The translations under genes were made by a program, and so were the position numbers. A DNA stretch of 64,000 bases from an uncultured Gemmatimonadales bacterium (GTDB lineage: Bacteria > Gemmatimonadota > Gemmatimonadetes > Palauibacterales > Palauibacteraceae). Below the pieces are notes generated by a model that saw only the letters and a list, made by a program, of their open reading frames with translations, was not told the origin of the DNA and ran no database searches. Of the stretch, positions 2,762 to 29,352 are shown piece by piece (the stretch's first letter is position 1; every line of letters starts with the position of its first letter). The stretch covers positions 18,025 through 82,024 of the forward strand of contig CAMYMV010000006.1 of NCBI GenBank assembly GCA_947259585.1, written 5' to 3'.

Positions 2762-3535
2762 CTAGCCGCGCTCCTCTTCCACGATCTCGGCGTCCTGAAC
2801 CTCTTCGCCCCCCTCCAGCACCTTGAGCTCCGCCTCCTCCACGTCATCAGGGGCCGGAGGCAGCAAGCCCATGTCCCGCTTCAGCTCCAGAAGCCGATCC
2901 TCCACGTCCGGTGTGGCCGCGGCCAGCAGGTCGAGCTCGCGCGCCAGATCGTCGCCTTCTAGCTCCTCGGTGACCTCGGCGGCCGCGATGGCCCGGCGCT
3001 CCTCGGTCTCGATCTTGTCGGCCATCTGATCGAAGGCCCGGAAGGCGCTGCGGTCCTGAAGGCCGGTGATCGTCTCGTGAATGCGCCGCTGTGCCTGCGC
3101 ACGCTTCTGCTTCGCGATCAGGAGGTTCTTCTTCCGCTTCGCCTCCTCGATCTTCGCGTTCAGCTGGCGCAGCGAGTCCTTGAGGCGCTCCGTGTCCTCC
3201 CGGTGCCTTTCCCACTGCGTCTGGAGCTCCTGGGCGTGGTTGGCGTGCTCCTGAGCCCGCAGAAGCGCCTGCTTGGCCAGGTCGTCCCGGTCCTCGCGCA
3301 CGGCCAGGCGGGCTCTCTTCTCCCAGTCCACGGCCTGACGCCGCTCTTCCTCGACCTGAGCCCTCAGCTTGCGCTCGTCCGCGATCGCGACGGCCACTTC
3401 CTGCTTCGCCTGTGCGAGCTGCCGCCGCATGTCCTCGATGATCTGCGTCAGCATCTTCTCGGGGTTCTCGGCCCGAGCGATCAGATCGTTGAGGTTGGAG
3501 CGGATCAGCCGCGAGAGTCTATCGAACAATCCCAT
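2762..3535 (-). CDS. pspA: Phage shock protein A / IM30 / Vipp1 family (PspA)
   Basis: The N-terminus MGLFDRLSRLIRSNLNDLIARAENPEKMLTQIIEDMRRQLAQAKQEV is the canonical PspA start. The rest is a long coiled-coil. ATG at 3535 (cat at 3533-3535 on the plus strand). The track ORF start at 3598 adds 21 aa. Confidence 0.85.
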   Translation of the reverse strand: MGLFDRLSRLIRSNLNDLIARAENPEKMLTQIIEDMRRQLAQAKQEVAVAIADERKLRAQVEEERRQAVDWEKRARLAVREDRDDLAKQALLRAQEHANHAQELQTQWERHREDTERLKDSLRQLNAKIEEAKRKKNLLIAKQKRAQAQRRIHETITGLQDRSAFRAFDQMADKIETEERRAIAAAEVTEELEGDDLARELDLLAAATPDVEDRLLELKRDMGLLPPAPDDVEEAELKVLEGGEEVQDAEIVEEERG

Positions 3536-7479: not shown

Positions 7480-10476
7480 TCACAGAATCCGCCGCAAGGA
7501 CGTTCCAGTGTGGCTGTCATCGGCCGCAGCCACAACCTCCGGCGGTCCCGCCGCCACGATCCGCCCACCGGCCCCTCCTCCCTCGGGCCCCAGATCGATC
7601 ACCCAGTCGGCCGTCTTGACGACGTCGAGCTGGTGCTCGATGACCAGCACGGTGTTGCCTTTCTCCACGAGCTTGTGCAGGACGCGGAGCAGCAGGCGTA
7701 TGTCCTCGAAGTGAAGACCGGTGGTGGGCTCATCCAGAATGTAGAGAGTCCGGCCGGTGCTCCGCTTGGAGAGCTCCGTGGCCAGCTTGACCCTCTGGGC
7801 CTCACCGCCCGAAAGGGTCGTGGCCGGCTGGCCGAGGTGGATGTAGCCGAGCCCCACATCATGGAGGTAGGCGAGCTTGCGGCGGATCGTCGGCACCGGG
7901 TCGAAGAAGGAGAGCGCATCCTCCACGGTCATGTCGAGAACGTCGGCGATGCTCTTCCCCTTATATAGAACCTCCAGCGTCTCCCGGTTGTAGCGCTTCG
8001 CGCGACAGACATCGCACGGCACGTACACGTCCGGCAGGAAGTGCATCTCGATCTTGACGAGGCCGTCGCCCCTGCAGGCCTCACAGCGCCCGCCCTTCAC
8101 GTTGAAGCTGAACCTCCCCGGCGCGTAGCCGCGGATCCGAGACTCGGGTAGCCGGGCGAACATCTCCCGGATCGGTGTGAAAAGGCCCGTGTACGTGGCC
8201 GGGTTGGAGCGCGGGGTGCGGCCGATCGGGCTCTGATCCACGTCGATCACCTTGTCGATCTCCTCCATCCCTTCGATCGCCTCGTGATCGCCCGGTACGG
8301 CGCGGGCCCGGTAGAGCTCGCGCGCCAGCCTGCGGTAGAGGATCTCCTCGACCAGGGTGGATTTCCCCGACCCCGAGACGCCGGTCACGCATATGAAGAG
8401 CCCGAGCGGGAACTCGACGTCGATGTCCTGAAGGTTGTGCTCGCGCGCGCCCCGCACGACCAGCTTCTGATGCCCGTCCGGCGAGCGCCGTCGCTTCGGC
8501 ACCGGGATGCTCCGATCGCCCCTGAGGTAGGCGCCCGTCAGCGACGCCTCGTGGCCCAGCAGATCCTCCACCGTCCCCGACACGATGACCTCGCCGCCGT
8601 GCCGGCCGGCGCCGGGCCCCATGTCCACGACGTAGTCGGCGGAGCGGATCGTCTCCTCGTCGTGCTCCACGACCAGGAGCGTGTTGCCCAGATCGCGAAG
8701 CGTTTCGAGCGTGTCCAGCAGACGCCGGTTGTCGCGCGCGTGGAGGCCGATGCTCGGCTCGTCCAGGACGTAGAGCACGCCGACCAGCCGGCTCCCGATC
8801 TGGGTGGCCAGCCGGATCCGCTGGCTCTCCCCCCCGGAGAGCGTCTCGGCCGCCCTCGAGAGCGTGAGGTAGCCGAGCCCGACATGCACCATGAAGCGGA
8901 GGCGGGAGCAAACCTCCTTGAGGATGGGAGCGACGACTTCCGCCGTCCGGCTGGTGGCTCGAGCGAGCATCTCCTCGAAGAGCTCCAGCGCCTCGTCGAT
9001 CGGAAGCTCCAGCACGTCGGAGATCCGCCGCCCCCCCACCGTCACGGCCAGGCTCTCGGGCCGCAGGCGGGCACCGCCGCACGCCTCACAGGACGAAGCG
9101 ACCATGAAGGCTTCGAGCGCCAGGCGCACCCGGTCCGCCTGCGCTTCCCGGTAGCGGCGCGCCGTGTCGGCGACCGCGCCCTCCCAATCCAGCTCCGGGT
9201 CGCCCTCCAGAACGGCCTCCCGCTGGGCGTCCTCCAGCTCGCCCCACGGAGTGCCGAGCGAAAACCCGTGCTTTTCGGCCAGGGCCGGCAGGATCCGCCG
9301 CCTCAGCCGTCCGGTCGGCCCTCCCCACGGAAGGATGACGCCTTCCATGATGGAGATCGGATCACCCCCCACGATCAGGGAGGGATCGGGCCGCTTCTGA
9401 AGGCCGAGGCCGTCGCACTCCGGACAGGCCCCGTACGGCGAGTTGAAGCTGAACTGACGGGGCTCGAGCTCGGGTATGCTCAGCTCGCACGCCGGGCAGG
9501 CGTACTGCTCGCTGAACAGGTGCCGCCCATCCTGCGGCGAATCCATCTGCAGCACCTCGACGGTGCCGGCCGCCATCCGGAGCGCCGTGCCCACGGAGTC
9601 GGCCAGCCTCTCCCGATCCCGCCCCCGAACGGCCAGTCGGTCGACGACCACCGAGATGTCGTGGCTCGCGCGGCGGTTCAGTCGAGGCGGATCGCTCAGC
9701 TCCACCAGCTCGCCGTCCACCCGCGCCCGCACGAACCCCTCCTTGACCGCCTCCTCGAACAGATCGCGGAACTCGCCTTTGCGGCCCCTGACGAGGGGGG
9801 CGAGGACCTCGATCTTCGTTCTCTCGGGCCAGGTAAGGACCTGCTCGGCGATCTCGGTGGCCGACTGCGGGCGAACGGGCCGGCCGCAGTTGGGGCAGTG
9901 AGGAGTCCCGGCGCGTGCCCAGAGGAGGCGGAGGTAGTCGTGGACCTCCGTGACCGTTCCGACCGTGGAGCGCGGGTTCCGGCTCGCGCTCCGCTGCTCG
10001 ATCGCGATCGCCGGGGAGAGCCCCTCGATCTGATCGACGTCGGGCTTCTCGAGGACGCCGAGGAACTGCCGGGCGTATGCGGAGAGCGACTCCACGTATC
10101 GGCGCTGGCCCTCGGCGTAGATCGTATCGAAGACCAGGGAGGATTTGCCGGAGCCCGAGAGACCCGTCACGACCACCAGGCGATCGCGGGGAATCTCCAC
10201 GTCGATGTTCCGGAGGTTGTGCTCGCGGGCGCCGCGCACGACGAGCGTATCGGACTCGGCCCGGCCCTCCGTGTCGCCAGAGCCCGCCGCTTCGCCGGAG
10301 CCCGCCACTTCGCCAGAGCCCTCCGCTTCGCCGGACCTCGCCTGCACCCCCGAGCCCATTTCTTCGTCGGGGGCGATCAGAACGTCACCCGGGCCGGTCT
10401 GTGCGTCACCCGGCTCCGTCATCCGCGCCTCCGGGCCGGCTACCGCCGAGCCCGCACCGTTCTTCCGCCGCGCCAT
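7480..10476 (-). CDS. uvrA: Excinuclease ABC subunit A (UvrA)
   Basis: Two ABC ATPase modules ([10 protein letters not shown], twice), zinc-finger Cys clusters, and [20 protein letters not shown]. An N-terminal extension of about 75 aa of low-complexity SGEA repeats leaves the true start uncertain. Candidate starts are 10476, 10422 and 10359. Confidence 0.9.
10273..10344 (-). repeat. 18-bp tandem repeat x4 (TTCGCCRGAGCCCGCCRC) inside uvrA 5' region
   Basis: Direct tandem copies were seen on the plus strand at 10273-10344. They encode [21 protein letters not shown] in the uvrA frame. The unit is a multiple of 3, so copy-number change would preserve the frame. Confidence 0.5.
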
Positions 10477-17129: not shown

Positions 17130-19381
17130 CAGAACGCCTGGCCGATCGCGAAGTGCACCCTCAGCCTCCTGAAGAACTCCTTGAACAAGCTGGGTTCGTC
17201 GAAGCCCACCGGGTCGTAGACCACGGGAAGCGGAACCTGGGAGAGCGAGCCGTCCTCCAGCTCGGCCACCACTTCGCGCAGGCGCGGACCCTGTGTGTTG
17301 TACCCGAGGTCCAGCCGTATGGGCCCTATCGGACTGGAGAACCGGACTCCAGCGCCCGGCGTGAACGACGGCCTTTCCAGCGTGGTCACGTCGTTGTAGA
17401 CATCGCCCCAGTCCAGGAAACCGACCAGCTGCCAGCGGCGAGTGAGATAGTAGCGGAACTCGAAGCTGCCCTCGATCATCCCGTTCCCGCCCTTCGGGCG
17501 CTCATCGAAATCGTTGGCCGCCGTGTCCGCCAGGGCGATCGCGCACTGCTGGAGCGGCGTGTCCGCGCACTGGGTAACCGAGTCCATGACGAGCACCGTG
17601 GGCCCGAGCAGGTTCTGCCGGTACCCTCGTACGCTGTTCGCCCCACCGCCGTAAAACCTCTTGGCCGGGTTCACGATCTCGTCGCTTGCGGCCTGTCCGT
17701 CCGATCCGAAGATGATGCTCTGGGAGGGCTCGACGACGCCGCCCCTCAGATGGAAGGCGAACACCCACTGCGGGCTCAGCTTCTGGTAGGCGGCCAGATC
17801 GAGCGCGAAACGCACGTAGCGGTACTCGGAGCCCGTAAAGGAAGCGGCGAACTCCGCCTGCGGCGTGACCCGGTAGCCGCGGGTCGGGTTGAAGCGGGTA
17901 TCGGTGCGGTCGTAGACGAACGTCGCGACGATCGGAGAGAGCCAGCGCGGCTCGGTGAGCACTTCGATGTCGTCGGGATCGCAGATCCCGAAGCTGGCGC
18001 AGAAGAAGATGTCCGTGGACTTCGGATCGAAGGACGTCAGCTGGGGCCGGTATGAATAGGTAGTCGTGAGCCGGGGATTGATCCGTCGACTGATGCCGAT
18101 CGCGGCACCCACGCTCGTGCTCACGAAGATGTTCGGAACGCTCTCGCGCTCGAAGAAGACCTCGCCCAGGAGCCGGTTCTTCTCCGAGATGAAGTACGGT
18201 TGATCGAAGTCCGCGCTGGCCCGCCAGGTGAACTGCTGGAAGACCGGGTCGTTGCCCACGTCACTGCATGGGAAGCCCCCCTTGAGCGCTTCCGCCCCGA
18301 TGTTGCCCACTCGGCCGGAGAGCGTGAGCAACCGTCCCTCGCCCAGGAAGTTACGGTGTGAGAAATCACCCTCCAGGACCCCGCATTCGGTCGTGCTGAG
18401 GCCGGCGCCCGTGCGGAAGGCGTTCAGGTTTGCCTCCGTCACCGTCACTGTAACGTCCACGAGGGTATCGACATCCTCCCGCTGAGTCGCCTCTATGCTG
18501 GCGAAGCGGAAGGCCGCCACATCCAGCAGACTGAGCTGGCTATCGCGGATCTTCTGCTCGCTGTAGTACTCACCGGTGCGAAAGGCGAGGAACTGTCGGG
18601 CGAGAGACTCCTCCACCTTCTCGGTCCCCTGGATCGATATGGAGCCGATGCGCGCGCGGTCACCGGCCATCACGGTGATCGTCACATCGGCTTCCAGCTC
18701 CTCGCGCGGAATGAAGTACTCGGACAGCACGGCCGCGCCGACGAACCCGATGTTGAGCAGACGGTTTTCGATCTCCTGCTTGCCGCGTTGGAGCTCGAGA
18801 ACGTCGAACGGATCACCCTCCTCGAGCGGGAAGCCTTCCAGGAGCCCGACGGTGTCGGAGAGCTCGGAGAGACCCTCGAAGCTGAGCGATCTGACCCGCG
18901 TGGGGGCTTGCTCATCGATCAGGAAGGTGACGTGGACCTTCGCATCCTTCGCATCCTCTGCATCCTCTGCCCCTGCATCCTCTGAATCCTCTGCCCCTGC
19001 ATCCTCTGAATCCTCTGAATCGTCGCGGCCACTCTCGACGAGGGTGTCCACGACGACCTGGCGGTAACCCCGCTGCCGGTAGAAGACGCGAAGCCGGAGC
19101 ATGTCGAGCGGAAGCTCCTTCGCGTTGAGGTTCCGCCGGTTGTGTGCGATCCCCCAGTCGGTGAACGGACAGAGCGGGATGGGCGCCACGAAGAGAAAGG
19201 TCTTGCAGGAGGTGGCCTTGTTGACGATGGCAGCCGCAAGCTCCTTGTCGGAGAACGCTTCGTTCCCCTCGAAGCTGAGCTTGGCCAGCTCCCGCTCGGG
19301 AGGCGCCTGTGCACGAAGTTGAGCCGGCGCGAGAAGGAGCGGGACCGCCACCAGGAGAGCGCGCGACTTCACGCCGATCAC
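17129..19381 (-). CDS. Omp85-family outer membrane protein (TamA/BamA-like) with POTRA domains and C-terminal beta-barrel
   Basis: POTRA-like segments (e.g. ITVMAGDRARIGSISIQGTEKV) and a bacterial surface antigen (D15) barrel are present. Start is re-called to the GTG at 19381. This gives the signal peptide M-IGVKSRALLVAVPLLLAPAQLRAQA. The GTG overlaps the TGA of the upstream small ORF (GTGA). The track start at 19618 adds 79 Arg/Gly-rich residues with no signal peptide. Confidence 0.75.
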   Translation of the reverse strand: MIGVKSRALLVAVPLLLAPAQLRAQAPPERELAKLSFEGNEAFSDKELAAAIVNKATSCKTFLFVAPIPLCPFTDWGIAHNRRNLNAKELPLDMLRLRVFYRQRGYRQVVVDTLVESGRDDSEDSEDAGAEDSEDAGAEDAEDAKDAKVHVTFLIDEQAPTRVRSLSFEGLSELSDTVGLLEGFPLEEGDPFDVLELQRGKQEIENRLLNIGFVGAAVLSEYFIPREELEADVTITVMAGDRARIGSISIQGTEKVEESLARQFLAFRTGEYYSEQKIRDSQLSLLDVAAFRFASIEATQREDVDTLVDVTVTVTEANLNAFRTGAGLSTTECGVLEGDFSHRNFLGEGRLLTLSGRVGNIGAEALKGGFPCSDVGNDPVFQQFTWRASADFDQPYFISEKNRLLGEVFFERESVPNIFVSTSVGAAIGISRRINPRLTTTYSYRPQLTSFDPKSTDIFFCASFGICDPDDIEVLTEPRWLSPIVATFVYDRTDTRFNPTRGYRVTPQAEFAASFTGSEYRYVRFALDLAAYQKLSPQWVFAFHLRGGVVEPSQSIIFGSDGQAASDEIVNPAKRFYGGGANSVRGYRQNLLGPTVLVMDSVTQCADTPLQQCAIALADTAANDFDERPKGGNGMIEGSFEFRYYLTRRWQLVGFLDWGDVYNDVTTLERPSFTPGAGVRFSSPIGPIRLDLGYNTQGPRLREVVAELEDGSLSQVPLPVVYDPVGFDEPSLFKEFFRRLRVHFAIGQAF
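18935..19020 (-). repeat. Nested 9/24-bp tandem repeat encoding an acidic (DSEDAGAE)n insertion in the Omp85 protein
   Basis: The plus strand carries repeated GCATCCTCT / GAATCCTCT / GCCCCT units. The protein segment is DSEDSEDAGAEDSEDAGAEDAEDAKDAK. The unit is in-frame, giving VNTR-like low complexity. Confidence 0.5.
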
Positions 19382-19656
19382 CGCGGCGGGCGTTCCGCTC
19401 CCTCGGCTTCTGATTCGGCGTCCGGTCCGGGGACCTCGAGCTCGGCCTCCGTCTCCGGGACCTCGAGCTCGGCCACTGGCCCGCCGACCTCGAGCGCGGC
19501 CTCTGGCTTCGCCGGCCCCGGCGGACCCTCGGACAGGGGCTCTCGCTGCATCCAGATCCGGGCCAGATAGAAGGTGGCCGCTCCTACGGCTGCGCCAAGG
19601 GCACCCGCGAGCGCCCACTCCGCGTCCGTCATGTCCCGCCGCCGGTAGTACGTCAC
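19378..19656 (-). CDS. Small membrane protein (92 aa) with one TM helix and Pro/Glu-rich repetitive tail
   Basis: GTG at 19656 has GGAG 8 nt upstream. It lies 3 nt after the TGA of the upstream phosphoesterase gene. The TM helix is WALAGALGAAVGAATFYLARIW. The tail is PEAALEVGGPVAELEVPETEAELEVPGPDAESEAEG. Its TGA overlaps the GTG start of the Omp85 gene. An alternative reading of the same DNA is the Omp85 N-terminal extension. Confidence 0.45.
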   Translation of the reverse strand: MTYYRRRDMTDAEWALAGALGAAVGAATFYLARIWMQREPLSEGPPGPAKPEAALEVGGPVAELEVPETEAELEVPGPDAESEAEGAERPPR

Positions 19657-22518: not shown

Positions 22519-23564
22519 GTCCGCCGGTCCGGCCCCCTGGAGGGATCGCTAGCCGGCCCGCCGCCTTCGTCCGCCGATCCCTGGTCCAGAGGCGGCAGCG
22601 AGTCGGCAGGCGTCGAATCGGGAACCTCGGGCTCGGGTGCGAGCGGCGAGACGAGCACGCGCACCGACTGGACCACATCGGCCTCCGACCCCTCTGGCAG
22701 GCCTAGCTGAACGGTCAGCGTGACCGGTGTCTCGGGCACCGCGTCGACCCTGACCGTTGCCGTCAGCGAGCTGGCCGAGAGCGCGCGAACGGCCCGCGCC
22801 GGCCCTCGAAGGCGGACGGGCACGACCGCCTGCGCGAGCCGGACCTGGTCGGCGGCCCGTCCCGTCACCCGCAGCGGGACCTGGAGCGTGCGCTCCATCA
22901 GCGAGTCGGCCTCGATCGTGACCTGAACGCTGCGCGGTTCGACGCTGAGACGGGACGGATCGGCAGGAAGCTGAAGTACCAACCGGTACGTCTCGCTCCG
23001 GGTGACGTTGCGCAGCGAGAGCCGCTCCGTGCGGATCGAGGCCACCGTGTCCGCCACCGATTCGACGCCGCGCACGGTTACGGTCGGGGGGTCGATGATG
23101 GGCTCGCCGATGATCACGTAGCCGGGAGCGGGCGACGCCTCGATGACCGGCTCGACCTCGATCTCCCTCCTCACCCGCCGCTCGAAGCGCAGCTCCACGC
23201 TGGAGGGACGAACATCAGTGGCTCGCACGCTGAGCGCGCGATCGTACGAGACCATGTCCGGACGGAGGGAAACCTGCATCGTCGGCGACGTTACGCTGTC
23301 GACGACGTAGCGGATGCGGGGCGTCTCCAGGAAGAGCCGCTGCACGTCGCTGCGCCGCCCCTGGAATATCGTGGTGACCTCCGCGGGCAGCTGGATCGCC
23401 GCCCACGCGCTGTCCGTCACCTCGAACTCGAGGCGCGTGCGAACCTGCTCGTCGCGTCGCTCGCCGGCAGTCACGTTGAACCACAGCAGGACGGCCAGCA
23501 CGACGGCGGCCAGCTTGTAGCCCCAGTTGTCGAAGAACGCGGCCCTCCACCGGAATCGTCTAAT
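22515..23564 (-). CDS. YbbR-like domain protein (CdaR-like)
   Basis: The track ORF starts at GTG 23501, but the conserved YbbR N-terminus (I)RRFRWRAAFFDNWGYKLAAVVLAVLLWFNV continues in-frame upstream. There is no ATG/GTG/TTG in that stretch. The candidate start is ATT at 23562-23564, with GGGGGACGGG upstream. Three or four YbbR repeats follow. Confidence 0.55.
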   Translation of the reverse strand: MRRFRWRAAFFDNWGYKLAAVVLAVLLWFNVTAGERRDEQVRTRLEFEVTDSAWAAIQLPAEVTTIFQGRRSDVQRLFLETPRIRYVVDSVTSPTMQVSLRPDMVSYDRALSVRATDVRPSSVELRFERRVRREIEVEPVIEASPAPGYVIIGEPIIDPPTVTVRGVESVADTVASIRTERLSLRNVTRSETYRLVLQLPADPSRLSVEPRSVQVTIEADSLMERTLQVPLRVTGRAADQVRLAQAVVPVRLRGPARAVRALSASSLTATVRVDAVPETPVTLTVQLGLPEGSEADVVQSVRVLVSPLAPEPEVPDSTPADSLPPLDQGSADEGGGPASDPSRGPDRRT

Positions 23565-23584
23565 TGTCCCGTCCCCCTGGAATG

Positions 23585-24397
23585 CTAGTTTTCCCGTCCG
23601 CCCTGAATCATCTCGATCACGTCCGTCGGGCTGCCCGCAACGCGCACGGAGACCTCGCCGCCCTCCCGCAGCCCGAAACCGGGCGGCGGCGACTGGCCGA
23701 TGACGCGGCCCGGTGCGCCGAGCGAGGCAGGCTCGAAGGTCACCGTGCCGATCAGCAAGCCCAGGCGTGCGAGCAGCACCTCGACGTCGTCGAGATGGCG
23801 ACCTTCGAGATCGGGCACGGCCACCACCTCCCTCCCCTCGCTCACGACCAGCTGGACCTCCGAGGCCACGGGCAGCATCTCGCCCGCTTCGGGCTCGGTC
23901 CGGATTACCTCCCCTTTGCGCTGCTGAGATGCGGTCGTGCTGGTCGACGTGGAGAGGCCCAGCCGGCCGAGGACGAGGGCCGCCTGAGACTCGCTCAAGC
24001 CGGTCACGTCCGGAACCGCGACCCTCTCCGGCCCAAGGCTCAGGGTCGCCTGAATCTCTGTCTCGGGCAACGCGAACTGCCCCGGCAGCGGCAGCTGGGC
24101 AATCACGCTTCCCATCGGTTCATCCGGATGGTGGATCTCGCCCGTGACCCGAAAGGTCAGGCCGGCCGCCTCGGTCCCCTCGCCCGCGCGCTCGGCCGAC
24201 TCTCCGATCAGGTCGGGCACCACGATCAAGGCTTCGGGCGTGCGGTCCGGCGAAGAAAACACCACCGTCGCGGCGATCAGGTAGCCCGCGACGAGCGCCA
24301 CCGCACCGGCAGCGAGCGAGATGAGTCCCCTGCGAGTGGTCGTCCTGTCCATCTTCAGCTCGGGGCCGCCGAGGCCCTTCCGCCGCTCGAAGCTCAT
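23585..24397 (-). CDS. Membrane-anchored protein with three PASTA domains (no kinase or PBP domain)
   Basis: An N-terminal TM helix (LISLAAGAVALVAGYLIAATVVF) is followed by three repeats of the PASTA pattern VPDL.G.....A......GL. The ATG at 24397 is the third copy of a 23-nt tandem start repeat. Confidence 0.7.
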   Translation of the reverse strand: MSFERRKGLGGPELKMDRTTTRRGLISLAAGAVALVAGYLIAATVVFSSPDRTPEALIVVPDLIGESAERAGEGTEAAGLTFRVTGEIHHPDEPMGSVIAQLPLPGQFALPETEIQATLSLGPERVAVPDVTGLSESQAALVLGRLGLSTSTSTTASQQRKGEVIRTEPEAGEMLPVASEVQLVVSEGREVVAVPDLEGRHLDDVEVLLARLGLLIGTVTFEPASLGAPGRVIGQSPPPGFGLREGGEVSVRVAGSPTDVIEMIQGGREN

Positions 24398-24443
24398 GCC
24401 GTCTTCCGTACGAAACTCATGCCGTCCGCCACTCGAAGCTCAT
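24375..24443 (-). repeat. 23-nt tandem repeat x3 (ATGAGCTTCGAGYGGCGGAMGGS) forming two ATGA-coupled 8-codon mini-ORFs before the PASTA gene
   Basis: Minus strand: ATGAGCTTCGAGTGGCGGACGGC (24443-24421), ATGAGTTTCGTACGGAAGACGGC (24420-24398), ATGAGCTTCGAGCGGCGGAAGGG (24397-24375). These encode mini-ORFs MSFEWRTA* (24443..24417) and MSFVRKTA* (24420..24394). The rsmB TGA (24440-24442) overlaps ATG-1. Each mini-ORF TGA overlaps the next ATG. Confidence 0.8.
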
Positions 24444-25792
24444 GCCGCTCGCCGTAGTCTGACCGCGTAGCTGCCGTCCGTCTCCCGTTGCCAGGGCAGC
24501 ACCCGAAGCTCTCCCTCCGCCCCCAGAGCATCCGCCGGGAGCGCCGGGCGGCGTGGGGACGGACAGCGAGAGAAGTGCTCGTGTCGGCTCAGGAAATCGC
24601 TCACCTGTCCTTCGTTCTCCTCCGGCTCGAGCGAACAGGTCGCATAGAGGACAGTCCCTCCCGGCTCGACCAGTTCCGCCGCGGCGTCCAGAAGCTCGCG
24701 CTGCAACTTAACGAGACCCGCAAGGCGGTCGGGACCGAGCCGCCACCGAGCATCGGCTCGGCGTCTCAGTACGCCGGTCCCCGAGCAGGGCGCATCCAGC
24801 AGGACGGTTCGAGCAGCTCGGAACGGCGGCTTCCGGCCATCCGCCACCAGGGCCGGAAGATCGACGTCTCGAACGCGCGCGGCCTTCACAACCCTCATGA
24901 GGCGTTCCGGGCTTCGGTCCGCCGCGATCACGGACCCGCCTTCCCGGCTGGCGGCCAGGGCGATGCACTTGCCGCCCGGCGCGGCGCAGAGGTCGACCGA
25001 GAGACCACCTTCCAGTGGGCTCATGTACTCTACCACGGCCGATGCCGCAGGATCCTGAACGATGGCCGGGAGGCGCGCGAGCAGCTCCGTTGGATCTCCC
25101 TCGGTCAGCGCCCAGCAGCCCGGGAATCCCGGGATGGCCTCGAGCCGAGCGTCGGCGGTCGCTCGGTCGTCGGCCTCCCGCCTCCCGCCCTCGTCGCCGA
25201 GGGTGCGAAGCGTCACGCGCGGGGGCCGGTTGTCCAACTCGACGAGACGGGTCACCGTCTCGATCGGCCATCGCTCCAGCCAGCGCCGCACCAACCATTC
25301 GGGGTGCGAGCCATAGGTGGCGAAATGGGCGATCGGATCGGCCTCCGGAGCCGGAAAGAGGGCCGCCCGCTCTTCTTCGCCGAGGCGAGCCGCCGAGCGC
25401 AGCACGGCGTTGACGAACCCGACGGCGCGTGCGCCCGCCGTTGAGCGAAACGCCTCGATCGTCTCGTGCACGGCGGCGTGATCCGGGACACGGGTCTCGC
25501 GCAACTGGTAGAGGCCCAGTCGTAGCCAGAGCAGGACGGCCCGATCCAGGCGCTCGAGGGGGCGATCCACGAGGTGGAGGAGCTCGGCATCGAGGCGGGC
25601 ACGCAGGCGGATGGCGCCGTAGGCCAACTCGAGCGCCAGACCTCGCTCCAGGGGAGGCAGGTCCGCCATCCTTCGGTTGGCCGCGCGGTCAGCGTAAGCC
25701 CCCTGTTCGACGTCCTCCAGGACGCGGAAGGCGGCGACGCGAGGCAGTGTCAGCTCAGCATGCCCCCCAGCGGACTCGATGGAACCGCCCAC
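24440..25792 (-). CDS. rsmB: 16S rRNA (cytosine967-C5)-methyltransferase RsmB/Sun (NusB-like N-domain plus SAM MTase)
   Basis: The NusB-like region is ...GAYADRAANRRM. The MTase motifs are DLCAAPGGK and PCSGTG. The start at 25792 overlaps thiG by 43 nt. A later in-frame start is possible. Confidence 0.85.
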   Translation of the reverse strand: MGGSIESAGGHAELTLPRVAAFRVLEDVEQGAYADRAANRRMADLPPLERGLALELAYGAIRLRARLDAELLHLVDRPLERLDRAVLLWLRLGLYQLRETRVPDHAAVHETIEAFRSTAGARAVGFVNAVLRSAARLGEEERAALFPAPEADPIAHFATYGSHPEWLVRRWLERWPIETVTRLVELDNRPPRVTLRTLGDEGGRREADDRATADARLEAIPGFPGCWALTEGDPTELLARLPAIVQDPAASAVVEYMSPLEGGLSVDLCAAPGGKCIALAASREGGSVIAADRSPERLMRVVKAARVRDVDLPALVADGRKPPFRAARTVLLDAPCSGTGVLRRRADARWRLGPDRLAGLVKLQRELLDAAAELVEPGGTVLYATCSLEPEENEGQVSDFLSRHEHFSRCPSPRRPALPADALGAEGELRVLPWQRETDGSYAVRLRRAA

Positions 25793-26559
25793 TCCCGCCG
25801 GGGCATCCGCCCCGCCAGGTAGGCCAGCCGGCCCGCCTCGACCGCCAACCGCATGGCGCCGGCCATGATCTCCGGCCGCTCCGCCTCGGCCAGCGCGGTG
25901 TTCATGAGGATGGCGTCGGCACCCTGCTCCATCGTGATGCAGGCGTCCGACGCCGTACCAACGCCCGCATCCACGATGACGGGCACCGAGAGGCGGTCCT
26001 TGAGGATGCGCACGTTGACCGGGTTGAGGAGCCCGAGCCCGCTGCCGATCGGCGAGCCGAGCGGCATGACGGCCGCTGCGCCGGCTTCCTCCAGCTTCAG
26101 GGCGGTCACGAGGTCGTCGTTCGTGTACGGCAGCACGGTGAACCCTTCATCGACCAGAATCCGCGTCGCCTCGAGCAGCCCATCGGTGTCGGGGAGGAGC
26201 GTCGCCTGGTCGCCGATCACCTCGAGCTTCACCCAGTCGGTAAGGCCGGAGGCTCGCCCCAGGCGTGCGTAACGGATCGCCTCGTCGGCCGAGTAACACC
26301 CCGCCGTGTTTGGAAGAACGAAGAACTCCTCCGGATCCAGCCAGTGAAGGAGGCTCTCTTCCTTGGACGCGTCGAGATCCACGCGCCGGACCGCCACGGT
26401 CACCATCTCGGCGCCCGCCGCGCGGATCGCCTGCACCATCTCCTCGCTGTCCCGGTACTTTCCGCTGCCCACGATCAGGCGAGAGCGAAACGTCCGGTCG
26501 GCGATCGTCAGGGGCTCGTCCCGTACGCCCGCGCCGACCTCTTCGAGCGTCGTCGTCAT
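25750..26559 (-). CDS. thiG: Thiazole synthase ThiG
   Basis: MTTTLEEV...LTIADRTFRSRLIVGSGKY ... LPNTAGCY ... and the C-terminal barrel match the ThiG family end to end. Confidence 0.9.
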   Translation of the reverse strand: MTTTLEEVGAGVRDEPLTIADRTFRSRLIVGSGKYRDSEEMVQAIRAAGAEMVTVAVRRVDLDASKEESLLHWLDPEEFFVLPNTAGCYSADEAIRYARLGRASGLTDWVKLEVIGDQATLLPDTDGLLEATRILVDEGFTVLPYTNDDLVTALKLEEAGAAAVMPLGSPIGSGLGLLNPVNVRILKDRLSVPVIVDAGVGTASDACITMEQGADAILMNTALAEAERPEIMAGAMRLAVEAGRLAYLAGRMPRREWAVPSSPLGGMLS

Positions 26560-26562
26560 CGC

Positions 26563-26778
26563 TTACCCTCCGCCTACGAAGTTGACCAATTCCACGCGAT
26601 CACCCGGCTCCAGCTTCACCTCGGAGAGCTCGCCTCGGCGGAGGATCTGACGGTTCAGCTCCACCACGACGAGACGGCCGTCCAGCTCCAGCTCCGAGAG
26701 CAGCTCCGAGACGGCCTGGCCGACCCGTGCCATACGAGGCTGTCCGTTCACCAGTATCTCAATCTCATCCGAGATCAT
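26563..26778 (-). CDS. thiS: Sulfur carrier protein ThiS
   Basis: MISDEIEILVNGQP... ending in VGGG-stop (C-terminal Gly-Gly). ATG at 26778 sits immediately after a perfect SD, GGAGGAAGC. The track ORF extends 29 aa upstream through an in-frame (GRG)n repeat and is rejected. Confidence 0.8.
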   Translation of the reverse strand: MISDEIEILVNGQPRMARVGQAVSELLSELELDGRLVVVELNRQILRRGELSEVKLEPGDRVELVNFVGGG

Positions 26779-26849
26779 GCTTCCTCCACGGCCTCCACGG
26801 CCACCGCGACCACCGCGGCCACCGCGACCACCGCGACCACCGCGGCCAT
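26775..26849 (-). other. 24-codon Val/Ala-rich mini-ORF (MAAVVAVVAVAAVVAVAVEAVEEA) ATGA-coupled to thiS
   Basis: ATG at 26849 lies 8 nt after the thiE TGA. The mini-ORF runs through the 9-bp repeat array. It ends with a TGA at 26775-26777 that overlaps the thiS ATG at 26776-26778. Coding status is unproven. Confidence 0.3.
26783..26845 (-). repeat. 9-bp tandem array x7 (2x CCTCCACGG + 5x CCACCGCGR) in the thiE-thiS spacer
   Basis: Seven contiguous 9-mers read on the plus strand. In the three frames they encode (GRG)n, (VVA)n or (PPR)n on the coding strand. Confidence 0.8.
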
Positions 26850-26857
26850 GTTTCTCA

Positions 26858-27412
26858 TCAGGCATCGTTCCAGGCTCGGACCAGCCGGCCCGAAGCGTCC
26901 ACTGGATCTTCGGCTTCCCACACCGCTCGGACTACGGCGATCCCGCTCGCCCCCACTCTCCGAAGCGCCGGCGCCCCGGCGGCGTCGATGCCGCCGATAC
27001 CGACCACGGGCACGCCGACCGTCCGGCATCTCTCCACGATCGCCGTCCCTTGGGGTCGTACGCCAGGGTGAGTCCTGCTCGCGAATACCGTACCCAGGAC
27101 GATGTAACTCGCTCCGGCCGCCACCGCCTCCCGCGCCTCCGCTTCGGAGTGCACGGAGGCGCCGAGCGCGCACGCACCGTGCGCCCGTCGAATCACCTCG
27201 CGCGCTATCTCGACCGGGAGGCCCGTTCGGCCCAGCTGCACGGCCTGGGCACGGGCCGCGAGCGTCACATCCAGCCTCTCGTTGACGACGCACCAGCCAC
27301 CGGTCGCGGCCGCCCAGCCGGACAGGTCGGACGCCAGATCCAACAACCGGGATGCCGGAGCGTTCTTCAGCCGAAGGTGAAGGGCGAGGTCCGCGCCCCG
27401 TGCTTCCAGCAT
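26858..27412 (-). CDS. thiE: Thiamine-phosphate synthase ThiE
   Basis: MLEARGADLALHLRLKNAPASRLLDLASDL ... IVLGTVFASRTHPG ... GIGGI. ATG at 27412 has GAGG 11 nt upstream. The track start at 27808 adds 132 Gly/Arg-rich residues overlapping fmt. Confidence 0.8.
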   Translation of the reverse strand: MLEARGADLALHLRLKNAPASRLLDLASDLSGWAAATGGWCVVNERLDVTLAARAQAVQLGRTGLPVEIAREVIRRAHGACALGASVHSEAEAREAVAAGASYIVLGTVFASRTHPGVRPQGTAIVERCRTVGVPVVGIGGIDAAGAPALRRVGASGIAVVRAVWEAEDPVDASGRLVRAWNDA

Positions 27413-27486
27413 CGTCCGGCCAACCTCGAGGAAGTCCGGCCGGCTGGCCTGCGCATCGCCGGCCACGACATGGAGGAGGGGGATGC

Positions 27487-28440
27487 TCAACGGAAGCGAT
27501 CGCCGCTCGCGGCTCCGCGTCCCCGGATCCAGGCCGCCGCCTCCATGCGAGCCCGACCGGCCGCCTTTACCTCTCCGATCCGGATCGTGCCAGATCCGGT
27601 GGAGACGACCAGTCCCTCGCGAGGATCCGCCTCCACCACCGTGCCGGGCTCCGCGGCCGTCCCCGACTCCGACCCCGGCCCAGTCTCCGAACCCGGTAGG
27701 GAGGGACCGAACATCTGCACCACGGACCCCTCGAGCTCGGTCCACGCCGCCGGCCAGGGATCGCAACCCCGCATCCAGCACCCGATCTCCGAGGCCGGAA
27801 GGCTCCAATCGATCCGCGCCAGCTCGCGGCTCATCTTGGGGGCGAACGTGGCCAGATCGTGATCCTGCTCCTGCTCCGTCACGTCCCCGCTCTCGAGCCG
27901 ATCGAGGACCTCTGCCAGGGCCTCGGCCCCGAGCGCCGAGAGCCGGCCGGAGAGCTCTCCGGCCGTCGCATCAGGACCGATCGGCTCTGCCTTCTGGTGG
28001 AGGATCGGTCCGGCGTCCATCTCGCGAACCATGCGCATGATCGTGACGCCGGTGAGGTCGTGGCCGCGGATGATCGCCCAGTTGATCGGAGCCGCGCCCC
28101 GGAGCTCCGGAAGGAGCGACGCGTGGACGTTGATCGAGCCTCGAGCTGGCAGCGCCAGCACCTCGTCCACCAGCAGCTGCCCGTAGGCCGCCACCACGGA
28201 GAGGTCCGGCCGTAGCTCGGAGATCGACTCGAGGAACTCGGCGCCTCGGGCTCTCTCCGGTTGGAGAACGGGAGCGCCCAGATCGATCGCCTCCCTCTTA
28301 ACGGCGCTCTCCCTCAGGTGACGCCCACGCCCGGCCAGGCGATCGGGCTGCGTGACCACGCCGACCAGTTCGTGTCCAGCGGCCACGGCCCGGAGCGAGG
28401 GAAGAGCGAAGTCGGGAGAGCCCCAGAAGAGAATACGCAC
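27487..28440 (-). CDS. fmt: Methionyl-tRNA formyltransferase
   Basis: MRILFWGSPDFALPSL ... the SLLPELRGAAPINWAII formyltransferase core, and a C-terminal domain. Confidence 0.9.
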   Translation of the reverse strand: MRILFWGSPDFALPSLRAVAAGHELVGVVTQPDRLAGRGRHLRESAVKREAIDLGAPVLQPERARGAEFLESISELRPDLSVVAAYGQLLVDEVLALPARGSINVHASLLPELRGAAPINWAIIRGHDLTGVTIMRMVREMDAGPILHQKAEPIGPDATAGELSGRLSALGAEALAEVLDRLESGDVTEQEQDHDLATFAPKMSRELARIDWSLPASEIGCWMRGCDPWPAAWTELEGSVVQMFGPSLPGSETGPGSESGTAAEPGTVVEADPREGLVVSTGSGTIRIGEVKAAGRARMEAAAWIRGRGAASGDRFR

Positions 28441-28450
28441 GGTTACATGG

Positions 28451-28972
28451 CTACATGGCCGGAGTCGCCGACCTCTCGCTCTCCGGCCGCTTGGACCATT
28501 TGTTCAGGAGCATCTTGCGCTTGAGAGGGCTCACGCGGTCGATGAACAGGACCCCATCCAGGTGGTCGATCTCGTGCTGCAGGCAGCGGCTCAGCAGTCC
28601 TTCCGCCTCGATTCGGACTCCCTCGCCATCCGCGTCCAGGCCCTCAACGACGACACGCCCGGCGCGCTGCACGATCTCCCGGAGATCGGGGATGCTCAGA
28701 CATCCCTCCTCTTCCTTCTGCCGCCCGCTCGTCTCGACGATACGCGGGTTGATCAGCGCTCCCCGCGCGTCTTCCGGCTCGCGGATGTCGTAGACGAAGA
28801 CCCGTATCGGAACGCCGACCTGAGACGCGGCGAGACCGATGCCGTCGGCCTCGTACATCGTGTCCATGAGGTCAGCGATCAGCGCGCGGACGTCCTCGTC
28901 GACGCGATCGACAGGCTCGGCCAACTCGCGCAGAACCGGATCGCCCAGCAGCCTGATTTCCCGAGCGCTCAA
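28451..28972 (-). CDS. def: Peptide deformylase
   Basis: GIGLAASQVG, EGCLSIPD and HEIDHLDG are the three PDF motifs. Confidence 0.9.
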   Translation of the reverse strand: MSAREIRLLGDPVLRELAEPVDRVDEDVRALIADLMDTMYEADGIGLAASQVGVPIRVFVYDIREPEDARGALINPRIVETSGRQKEEEGCLSIPDLREIVQRAGRVVVEGLDADGEGVRIEAEGLLSRCLQHEIDHLDGVLFIDRVSPLKRKMLLNKWSKRPESERSATPAM

Positions 28973-29310: not shown

Positions 29311-29352
29311 GTAGTCGCAACTCCGCCGCAACTCCGCCGCAACTCCGCCGCG
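29311..29352 (-). repeat. 11-bp direct repeat x3 (GCAACTCCGCC) in the tgt-yajC spacer
   Basis: The plus strand reads gcaactccgccgcaactccgccgcaactccgcc. The period is not a multiple of 3, so the array is non-coding. Confidence 0.6.

Follow-up and report, generated by a model that had tools for sequence, protein, structure and literature searches.

The stretch of DNA analysed here (64 kb from an uncultured Gemmatimonadales bacterium, called the window below, with all coordinates given as positions within it) carries on its minus strand the methyltransferase gene rsmB followed by a gene for a PASTA-domain protein. The junction between the two genes is occupied by a short tandem array which, read on the minus strand from 24443 to 24375, consists of three head-to-tail units of 23 nucleotides (nt), each opening with ATGAGYTTCG. 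Two very short open reading frames (ORFs), termed mini-ORF1 and mini-ORF2, lie within it. The features of the locus are listed here in the direction of reading.

24440..25792, minus strand: rsmB (16S rRNA m5C methyltransferase), 450 amino acids; Pfam NusB, RsmF-B_ferredox and Methyltr_RsmB-F
24444..24456, minus strand: partial unit 0, formed by the 3' tail of rsmB (tacggcgagcggc) and similar in sequence to the tails of units 1 and 2
24443-24421, minus strand: unit 1, ATGAGCTTCGAGTGGCGGACGGC (from the sequence)
24440..24443, minus strand: first ATGA junction, where the rsmB TGA stop (24442-24440) overlaps ATG-1 (24443-24441) (from the ORF list and the sequence)
24417..24443, minus strand: mini-ORF1, ATG AGC TTC GAG TGG CGG ACG GCA TGA = MSFEWRTA*
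24420-24398, minus strand: unit 2, ATGAGTTTCGTACGGAAGACGGC (from the sequence)
24394..24420, minus strand: mini-ORF2, ATG AGT TTC GTA CGG AAG ACG GCA TGA = MSFVRKTA*; the ORF list has this frame ending at 24394
24397-24375, minus strand: unit 3, ATGAGCTTCGAGCGGCGGAAGGG, the opening 23 nt of the PASTA gene (MSFERRKG), with the same sequence as the single-copy junction in relatives
23585..24397, minus strand: PASTA-domain gene, 270 amino acids, starting MSFERRKGL; Pfam gives three PASTA stretches and no other domain

On the minus strand the junction thus reads ...cgagcggc, then ATGAGCTTCGAGTGGCGGACGGC ATGAGTTTCGTACGGAAGACGGC ATGAGCTTCGAGCGGCGGAAGGGC..., and four ORFs stand in series, joined by three ATGA overlaps (24443-24440, 24420-24417 and 24397-24394). 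The stop of mini-ORF1 (24419-24417) overlaps ATG-2 (24420-24418) and that of mini-ORF2 (24396-24394) overlaps the PASTA ATG (24397-24395), so that the co-directional stop/start overlap (-4) that characterises pairs coupled by termination-reinitiation occurs three times over. An earlier note, made from the sequence alone, had described three tandem 23-nt units with a period that is not a multiple of 3, and this agrees with the sequence and with Tandem Repeats Finder (TRF); its two mini-ORFs and its overlap of the rsmB stop with ATG-1 are likewise present in the sequence and in the ORF list. The four termination-reinitiation junctions that it counted are a slip, there being four ORFs and three ATGA junctions.

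TRF reports a single array at 24381-24454 (period 23, 3.2 copies, 72% matches, score 86), the extra 0.2 copy arising because the rsmB tail of partial unit 0 resembles the tails of the units and the reported array reaches 24454. The units differ from one another at 3-7 positions per 23 nt, and a GGA motif, to which a regulator of the CsrA type could conceivably bind, is found in every one of them. Matches to the unit with at most three mismatches number two in the observed sequence and none in 100 shuffles, and arrays of equal quality with any period from 15 to 40 nt arose in 2 of 100 Markov-simulated windows; the array exceeds chance expectation. When the whole window was searched, the 23-nt unit matched its own junction only.

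Position 24397 is the authentic start of the PASTA gene, and both upstream ATGs are extra, because the N-terminus of the protein is conserved while Met16 is not. On alignment of 25 homologues, the N-terminal motif MSFERR[KR]GLG (MS[FY]xRRxGLG in distant homologues) was found to be kept down to ~45% identity; Met16 of the window protein (24352), which was considered as an alternative start and rejected, is Leu in most relatives. The protein comprises the conserved cytoplasmic N-terminus MSFERRKGLGG, a putative single transmembrane helix (a hydrophobic stretch, by reading of the sequence) and three PASTA repeats (PF03793, 109.9 bits against a gathering cut-off of 23.2), and Pfam detects no kinase, transpeptidase or penicillin-binding protein domain in it.

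An exact-sequence look-up of the window PASTA protein matched no contig, and relatives were gathered by homology search. Homology-guided scans yielded 156 related loci (numbered from L001), nearly all of them from Gemmatimonadota metagenome-assembled genomes (MAGs) or metagenome contigs, and exact-protein look-ups added five contigs (L157-L161), giving 161. The succession of rsmB and a kinase-less, membrane-anchored three-PASTA gene is conserved across Gemmatimonadota, with rsmB directly upstream in 134 of the 156 loci and usually with a 4-nt stop/start overlap between the two. This pairing recalls the Firmicutes fmt-rsmB-rlmN-prpC-prkC cluster, as though a PrkC-like kinase had been reduced to its PASTA ectodomain. 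The -4 overlap is itself conserved in orthologous junctions: an xTGA overlap between the rsmB stop and a start codon in the PASTA frame is present in 73 of the 129 loci that could be evaluated and, among the 15 relatives with at least 60% PASTA identity, in 12 (the exceptions being L001, L002 and L007), and in L157-L161 (87-89% identity) rsmB also ends 3 nt beyond the PASTA start. The junctions of the window and of three close relatives compare as follows, with identity to the window PASTA protein in brackets.

L003 (90%): rsmB tail ...ctacggcgagcggc; units 1 and 2 absent; PASTA start ATGAGCTTCGAGCGGCGGAAGGGC
L002 (93%): rsmB tail ...cgagcggc; unit 1 ATGAGCTTCGAGCGGAAAGCGGC; unit 2 absent; PASTA start ATGAGCTTCGAGCGGCGG...
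L001 (97%): rsmB tail ...cgagcggc; unit 1 CTGAGCTTCGAGCGGAAGACGGC; unit 2 ATGAGTTTCGTACGGAAGACGGC; PASTA start ATGAGCTTCGAG...
Window (100%): rsmB tail ...cgagcggc; unit 1 ATGAGCTTCGAGTGGCGGACGGC; unit 2 ATGAGTTTCGTACGGAAGACGGC; PASTA start ATGAGCTTCGAG...

Single-copy junctions like that of L003 were seen in L004, L005, L008, L082, L083 and L157-L161, and a duplicated junction only in the window (three units), L001 (three) and L002 (two), with no further case among the 161 loci. The array is missing from 11 of 14 close relatives and from all deeper ones, and copy number takes the values 1, 2 or 3 among relatives with 87-97% protein identity. Because all outgroups are single-copy, one ATGA overlap, which is also the commonest state in Gemmatimonadota, is the ancestral condition, and the array a derived and lineage-specific expansion. 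The variation in copy number of the 23-mer which the earlier note had proposed to look for in orthologous junctions therefore exists, and a uniform single copy, which it had named as the outcome that would speak against it, does not describe the close relatives. Its other worry was that the triplication might be an artefact of assembly or sequencing. Nothing was found in favour of this explanation, whose probability is close to negligible: independent MAG assemblies carry the three-unit (L001) and two-unit (L002) structures with substitutions of their own, and a 69-nt array with diverged units is shorter than typical short reads and hence easily resolved.

Three further loci show irregularities at or near the same gene pair. 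L007 (CP070670.1, Gemmatimonadota bin741, 2970-3005) has a 24-nt spacer after the rsmB stop (stop-to-start offset 27) which begins with GTGAGC, ends with GGGGCGGCG and is followed by the PASTA ATGAGC; it may be the decayed remnant of an earlier duplication of this junction, one with a 28-nt period that forms no relay. L095 (PVMK01119510.1) contains the rsmB 3' end together with the junction (gaaaggggaattacaggATGAGCTACAGG) twice, ~930 nt apart and with half a PASTA gene between, which points to a large duplication in tandem or else to chimerism in the assembly. A single metagenome contig, L090 (JABAOG010057780.1, 287-356), has 60 nt of its PASTA gene duplicated in tandem and in frame, close to the 3' end (the ...SDVI.MIQG... 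region).

A plausible clue to the origin of the array comes from the single-copy junction of L003, in which the pentamer CGGCG occurs at position i and again at i+23, flanking the ATGA. In the ancestor the rsmB TGA overlapped the PASTA ATG and, without an SD (Shine-Dalgarno) sequence, the PASTA gene would have been translated mainly by ribosomes that had just terminated on rsmB. Replication slippage between the two CGGCG pentamers 23 nt apart may then have copied the ATGA-bearing segment, taking the junction from one to two and then to three copies. Slippage as the mechanism fits this arrangement, CGGCG being the kind of microhomology that slippage uses. Of the two possibilities which the earlier note had put forward, a fossil of slipped-strand duplication is well supported by the single-ATGA outgroups, by the 5-nt microhomology at a distance of 23 nt and by the copy numbers of 1, 2 and 3 in close relatives. 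Several models of the exact duplicated segment were tried (23 nt bounded by CGGCG, 23 nt from ATG to GGG, and 24 or 26 nt with later indels) and none settles the history; the CGGCG model is the best for L002 (two substitutions), whereas unit 1 of the window fits two models equally (three each) and unit 2 fits poorly (seven).

The relay of mini-ORFs calls for no design, being an arithmetic by-product of a period that is 2 mod 3. As 23 = 3 x 8 - 1, the TGA of the next unit falls 24 nt from the ATG of the present one and so is in frame with it; because the unit holds ATGA and 23 is 2 mod 3, each extra copy automatically becomes a coupled 8-codon ORF. A period of 0 mod 3 would be expected to yield an N-terminally extended PASTA protein, and a period of 1 mod 3 would send ribosomes into the third frame across the PASTA start. 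No other relay-type duplicated xTGA junction was found outside this locus in a search of 0.89 Mb, a sample too small to test a preference for periods of 2 mod 3.

As judged from anti-SD duplex energies, no SD signal above background is present at any of the three ATGs. The values are -2.8 kcal/mol at ATG-1, -4.8 at ATG-2 and -3.5 at ATG-3, where the background of the window is -3.2 +/- 2.8, and the single-copy relatives are no better, with energies between +1.9 and -3.8. By contrast, clades of Gemmatimonadota with 7-67-nt spacers between rsmB and the PASTA gene have purine-rich motifs resembling an SD (aaaggggaac, ggagaa) before the ATG. The junction shows neither a stable RNA fold (minimum free energy z = +1.98, with all 200 shuffles folding at least as well) nor an Rfam family in a scan of 23000-28500, whose sole hit, a COG2908 match inside rsmB (E = 0.86), is at chance level and was discarded. 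A scan limited to sigma-70-type consensus gave no promoter-like site between rsmB and the PASTA gene, and no terminator-like site lies between them, the only matches being inside the PASTA coding sequence at chance frequency. RNA-based regulation was rejected on the grounds of a fold weaker than that of all shuffles and the lack of an Rfam match at the junction. Taken as a whole, these features are those of a start that receives its ribosomes from termination just upstream.

Leader-peptide and attenuator systems are typified by short ORFs placed immediately before a gene, and the mini-ORFs could be imagined to sense amino-acid supply, an antibiotic or nascent-peptide arrest and thereby to control the downstream gene. 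Such a role is very improbable here, since neither the alternative hairpins nor the terminator of an attenuator, nor an Rfam match, is present at the junction, the mini-ORFs contain no regulatory codon runs and are missing from nearly all relatives, and the peptides are unconserved (MSFEWRTA, LSFERKTA and MSFERKAA).

Reinitiation in E. coli falls steeply with distance, ~20 nt nearly abolishing it and 38 nt causing a loss of 80-100% (PMC10666635). Without the mini-ORFs, the distance from the rsmB stop to the PASTA start would be 42 nt, and given this distance dependence, coupling across such a gap needs the relay. Ribosomes leaving rsmB would pass along both mini-ORFs in turn and reach the PASTA start after three successive reinitiations instead of one, such that the coupling is kept with a yield probably below that of the single ancestral junction, and the octapeptides would be by-products echoing the PASTA N-terminus. 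PASTA translation thus probably still depends on serial termination-reinitiation, with translation of the mini-ORFs and the reduced yield being deduced from the arrangement of the junction.

The array might instead have uncoupled the two genes, if the PASTA start, pushed 42 nt away from the rsmB stop, were used independently of rsmB, with ribosomes initiating without an SD at ATG-3, where the region is unstructured, and the mini-ORFs not usefully translated. SD-independent initiation is favoured by a junction with less structure than any of the 200 shuffles, CG-to-AA changes have raised the A content ahead of ATG-3 in each of the three multi-copy genomes, L001 tolerates the loss of ATG-1, and uncoupled junctions do exist in the Gemmatimonadota clades with 7-67-nt spacers. 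Those clades, however, have clear purine-rich SD-like motifs which are lacking at this junction; ATG-1 and ATG-2 share the context of the ancestral, evidently functional coupled start, with no reason for terminating ribosomes to ignore them, and unit 2 with its ATGA is identical in the window and L001. Uncoupling is therefore regarded as unlikely, although it has more to be said for it than the other alternatives.

Taken together, we read the array as a lineage-specific tandem duplication of a coupled junction, a tolerated, nearly neutral and decaying scar which survives because its period preserves the hand-off, and give this reading a probability of about 0.65. In L001, where the last rsmB codon has changed synonymously from GCA to GCC, ATG-1 now reads CTG, and the first step of the relay is thus unprotected. 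The window and L001 disagree at 4 of 23 positions in unit 1 and at 0 of 23 in unit 2, against 5.3% over the 6.35-kb locus as a whole (Poisson estimate for at least four differences in unit 1, P ~0.04). The octapeptides vary among the multi-copy genomes in the three forms given above. With ATG-1 lost in the nearest relative, unit 1 drifting fast, the octapeptides unconserved and the array rare, a scar is indicated rather than a selected device, and we infer that the array is close to neutral. The second possibility of the earlier note, a functional device that tunes PASTA output, accordingly gained no positive support; to the lost start, the drifting unit 1 and the scarcity of the array can be added the units themselves, which are only ~72% alike and hence a poor substrate for slippage.

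A more specific form of that idea is an adaptive rheostat of the variable-number tandem repeat type, in which the number of 23-nt units is selected and sets the ratio of PASTA protein to RsmB, each mini-ORF multiplying the output by its reinitiation efficiency and slippage providing reversible, heritable tuning. Copy numbers of 1, 2 and 3 among close relatives, a tree that demands at least three copy-number events or recombination (see below), frames that are intact in every unit seen, and the precedent for relay logic in mycobacterial interspersed repetitive units (MIRUs; PMC12548453) can be cited for it. Intact frames are, however, automatic for young duplicates of this period. Diverged units (72% matches) slip poorly, and with 3-7 differences per 23 nt slippage would be suppressed and the copies old rather than cycling; the window and L001 are 5.3% diverged yet have equal copy number, L001 has lost ATG-1, and the array is missing in 11 of 14 close and all deeper relatives. 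Selection on copy number is unsupported by any positive evidence, and an adaptive rheostat appears quite improbable. Slightly less probable again is the notion of a MIRU-like, translationally coupled minisatellite caught at birth, whose copy number (1, 2 or 3) would be a heritable rheostat for the flow of ribosomes from rsmB to the PASTA gene.

Several observations weigh against so simple an account as a decaying scar. A bootstrapped neighbour-joining tree of 6,354 aligned columns places the two-copy L002 with the single-copy L003 and L082 (100%) and the window with L001 (100%), and the nested series of 1, 2 and 3 copies along the tree that would be expected was not seen, L002 falling among single-copy genomes. 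Because L002 groups with these and not with the three-copy pair, the tree points to at least three copy-number changes, or recombination at the junction, in a clade of ~10% or less divergence, and hence to a locus more dynamic than a one-off scar. The unit just before the real ATG carries GGAAGA or GGAAAG in all three multi-copy genomes against the ancestral GGCGAG, and this shared change of GGCG to GGAA could reflect either shared ancestry or convergent selection on initiation. No model of the duplication reproduces its exact boundaries, the units being 2-7 substitutions off each of them, and the multi-copy genomes number only three. The thiE-thiS array described below makes it evident that gene junctions often undergo slippage in this lineage; this supports an origin by slippage and, at the same time, tells against a mere scar.

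Divergence between the window and L001 is uneven over the 6.35 kb, with ~90-94% identity in thiG/rsmB and ~95-98% from the PASTA gene onward (91.5% in the rsmB 3' region against 97.4% in the PASTA gene). This unevenness across the junction suggests recombination with a breakpoint near it, which could also account for the odd distribution of copy numbers.

Other tandem repeats occur in the window, where six arrays of the tested quality were found, against any array in only 2 of 100 simulated windows. At the thiE-thiS junction (26786-26848, minus strand), a 9-nt unit (GGTCGCGGT / GGCCGTGGA) is repeated seven times directly upstream of thiS, between the thiE stop (26860-26858) and the thiS ATG (26777-26775). 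It duplicates the GGAGG region before thiS, the final copies carrying the GGAGG Shine-Dalgarno motif, and its copy number is 7 in the window, 3 in L001, 2 in L082 and 1-2 in L002 and L003. An upstream ATG in the window makes ORF finders call ThiS with a spurious N-terminal (GRG)7 extension. A perfect 11-nt array at 29316-29351 (CGCAACTCCGC x 3.3, 100% matches), upstream of the def/fmt region, also has a period that is not a multiple of 3. The further arrays at 10274-10357, 18942-19021 and 19415-19512 have periods of 18/36, 9/24/33 and 27 nt, all multiples of 3, and are presumably in-frame coding repeats.

Intermediates preserved in the related genomes show how an overlapping stop/start junction can be duplicated in tandem and yet be tolerated: with a period of 2 mod 3, the coupling signal is rebuilt in series instead of being broken. 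Relay-ORF repeats, of which mycobacterial MIRUs have so far been the main example, could originate in place by this simple route, and the junctions offer a natural series of one, two and three steps for the efficiency of reinitiation per step. As regards annotation, mini-ORFs of this kind between the genes of an operon do not necessarily code for a functional peptide, and the 42 nt will go unaccounted for by gene callers. Were the minisatellite reading true, the locus would show how relay-ORF repeats of the MIRU type can originate; if the array is merely a neutral scar, as is held most likely, its wider importance is modest.

Amongst known systems, simple-sequence contingency loci (phase-variable repeats) resemble the array in that both are tandem repeats at a translation start and vary in copy number from one related genome to another. 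Contingency repeats are perfect and short (1-7 nt as a rule) and switch genes by frameshift or by promoter spacing. The units of the array are long and have diverged (72% matches, 3-7 differences per 23 nt), unlike near-perfect, fast-slipping repeats, and a change in its copy number leaves every gene in frame. Ribosome-delivery upstream ORFs (in mycobacteria; the leader ORF of E. coli iraD, PMC5574718; synthetic bicistronic designs, cited in PMC12548453) are similar in that a non-functional short ORF has a stop overlapping the start of a real gene and serves solely to deliver a ribosome to it. They differ in being initiated de novo at the 5' end of the transcript, often with an SD of their own or leaderless, whereas the mini-ORFs here are fed by an upstream full-length gene and stacked two deep.

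Unidirectional gene pairs with -4 ATGA overlaps, coupled by termination-reinitiation (Huber et al. 2019, PMC6728339; Huber et al. 2023, PMC10666635), share with this locus the canonical ATGA at each of its three junctions and the lack of an SD of their own, and the single-copy ancestor would be an ordinary member of this class, conserved across the phylum. Those pairs are, however, single junctions between real genes, while the junction here is iterated three times via two 8-codon ORFs born of its own duplication. Moreover, -4 overlaps are enriched for subunits of one complex, and RsmB and a membrane PASTA protein are not obviously such. A full-text literature search brought up no account of in-place duplication turning a coupled junction into a series of mini-ORFs, which is weak evidence of novelty.

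The closest analogue is provided by MIRUs, tandem units between operon genes with a -4 coupled internal ORF, minimal impact on expression and variable copy number (Supply et al. 1997, via PMC12548453 and PMC3184786). Like a MIRU, the array has small ORFs whose ends overlap the stop and start of their neighbours, and a tandem copy number that varies, between strains in MIRUs and from 1 to 2 or 3 here. The MIRU unit is, by contrast, ~40-100 bp long (PMC3184786) against 23 nt, and MIRUs occupy ~40-50 loci per genome and are apparently mobile, whereas the present array was found at its own junction only (in the 64 kb searched). The 23-nt unit was built in place from the local rsmB 3' end and PASTA 5' end rather than inserted, in another phylum and with no sequence relation, and the array is not a member of the MIRU family. 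It is a variant that combines a -4 coupling junction with a MIRU-like relay repeat, and as such of moderate interest as a natural illustration and a possible experimental series.

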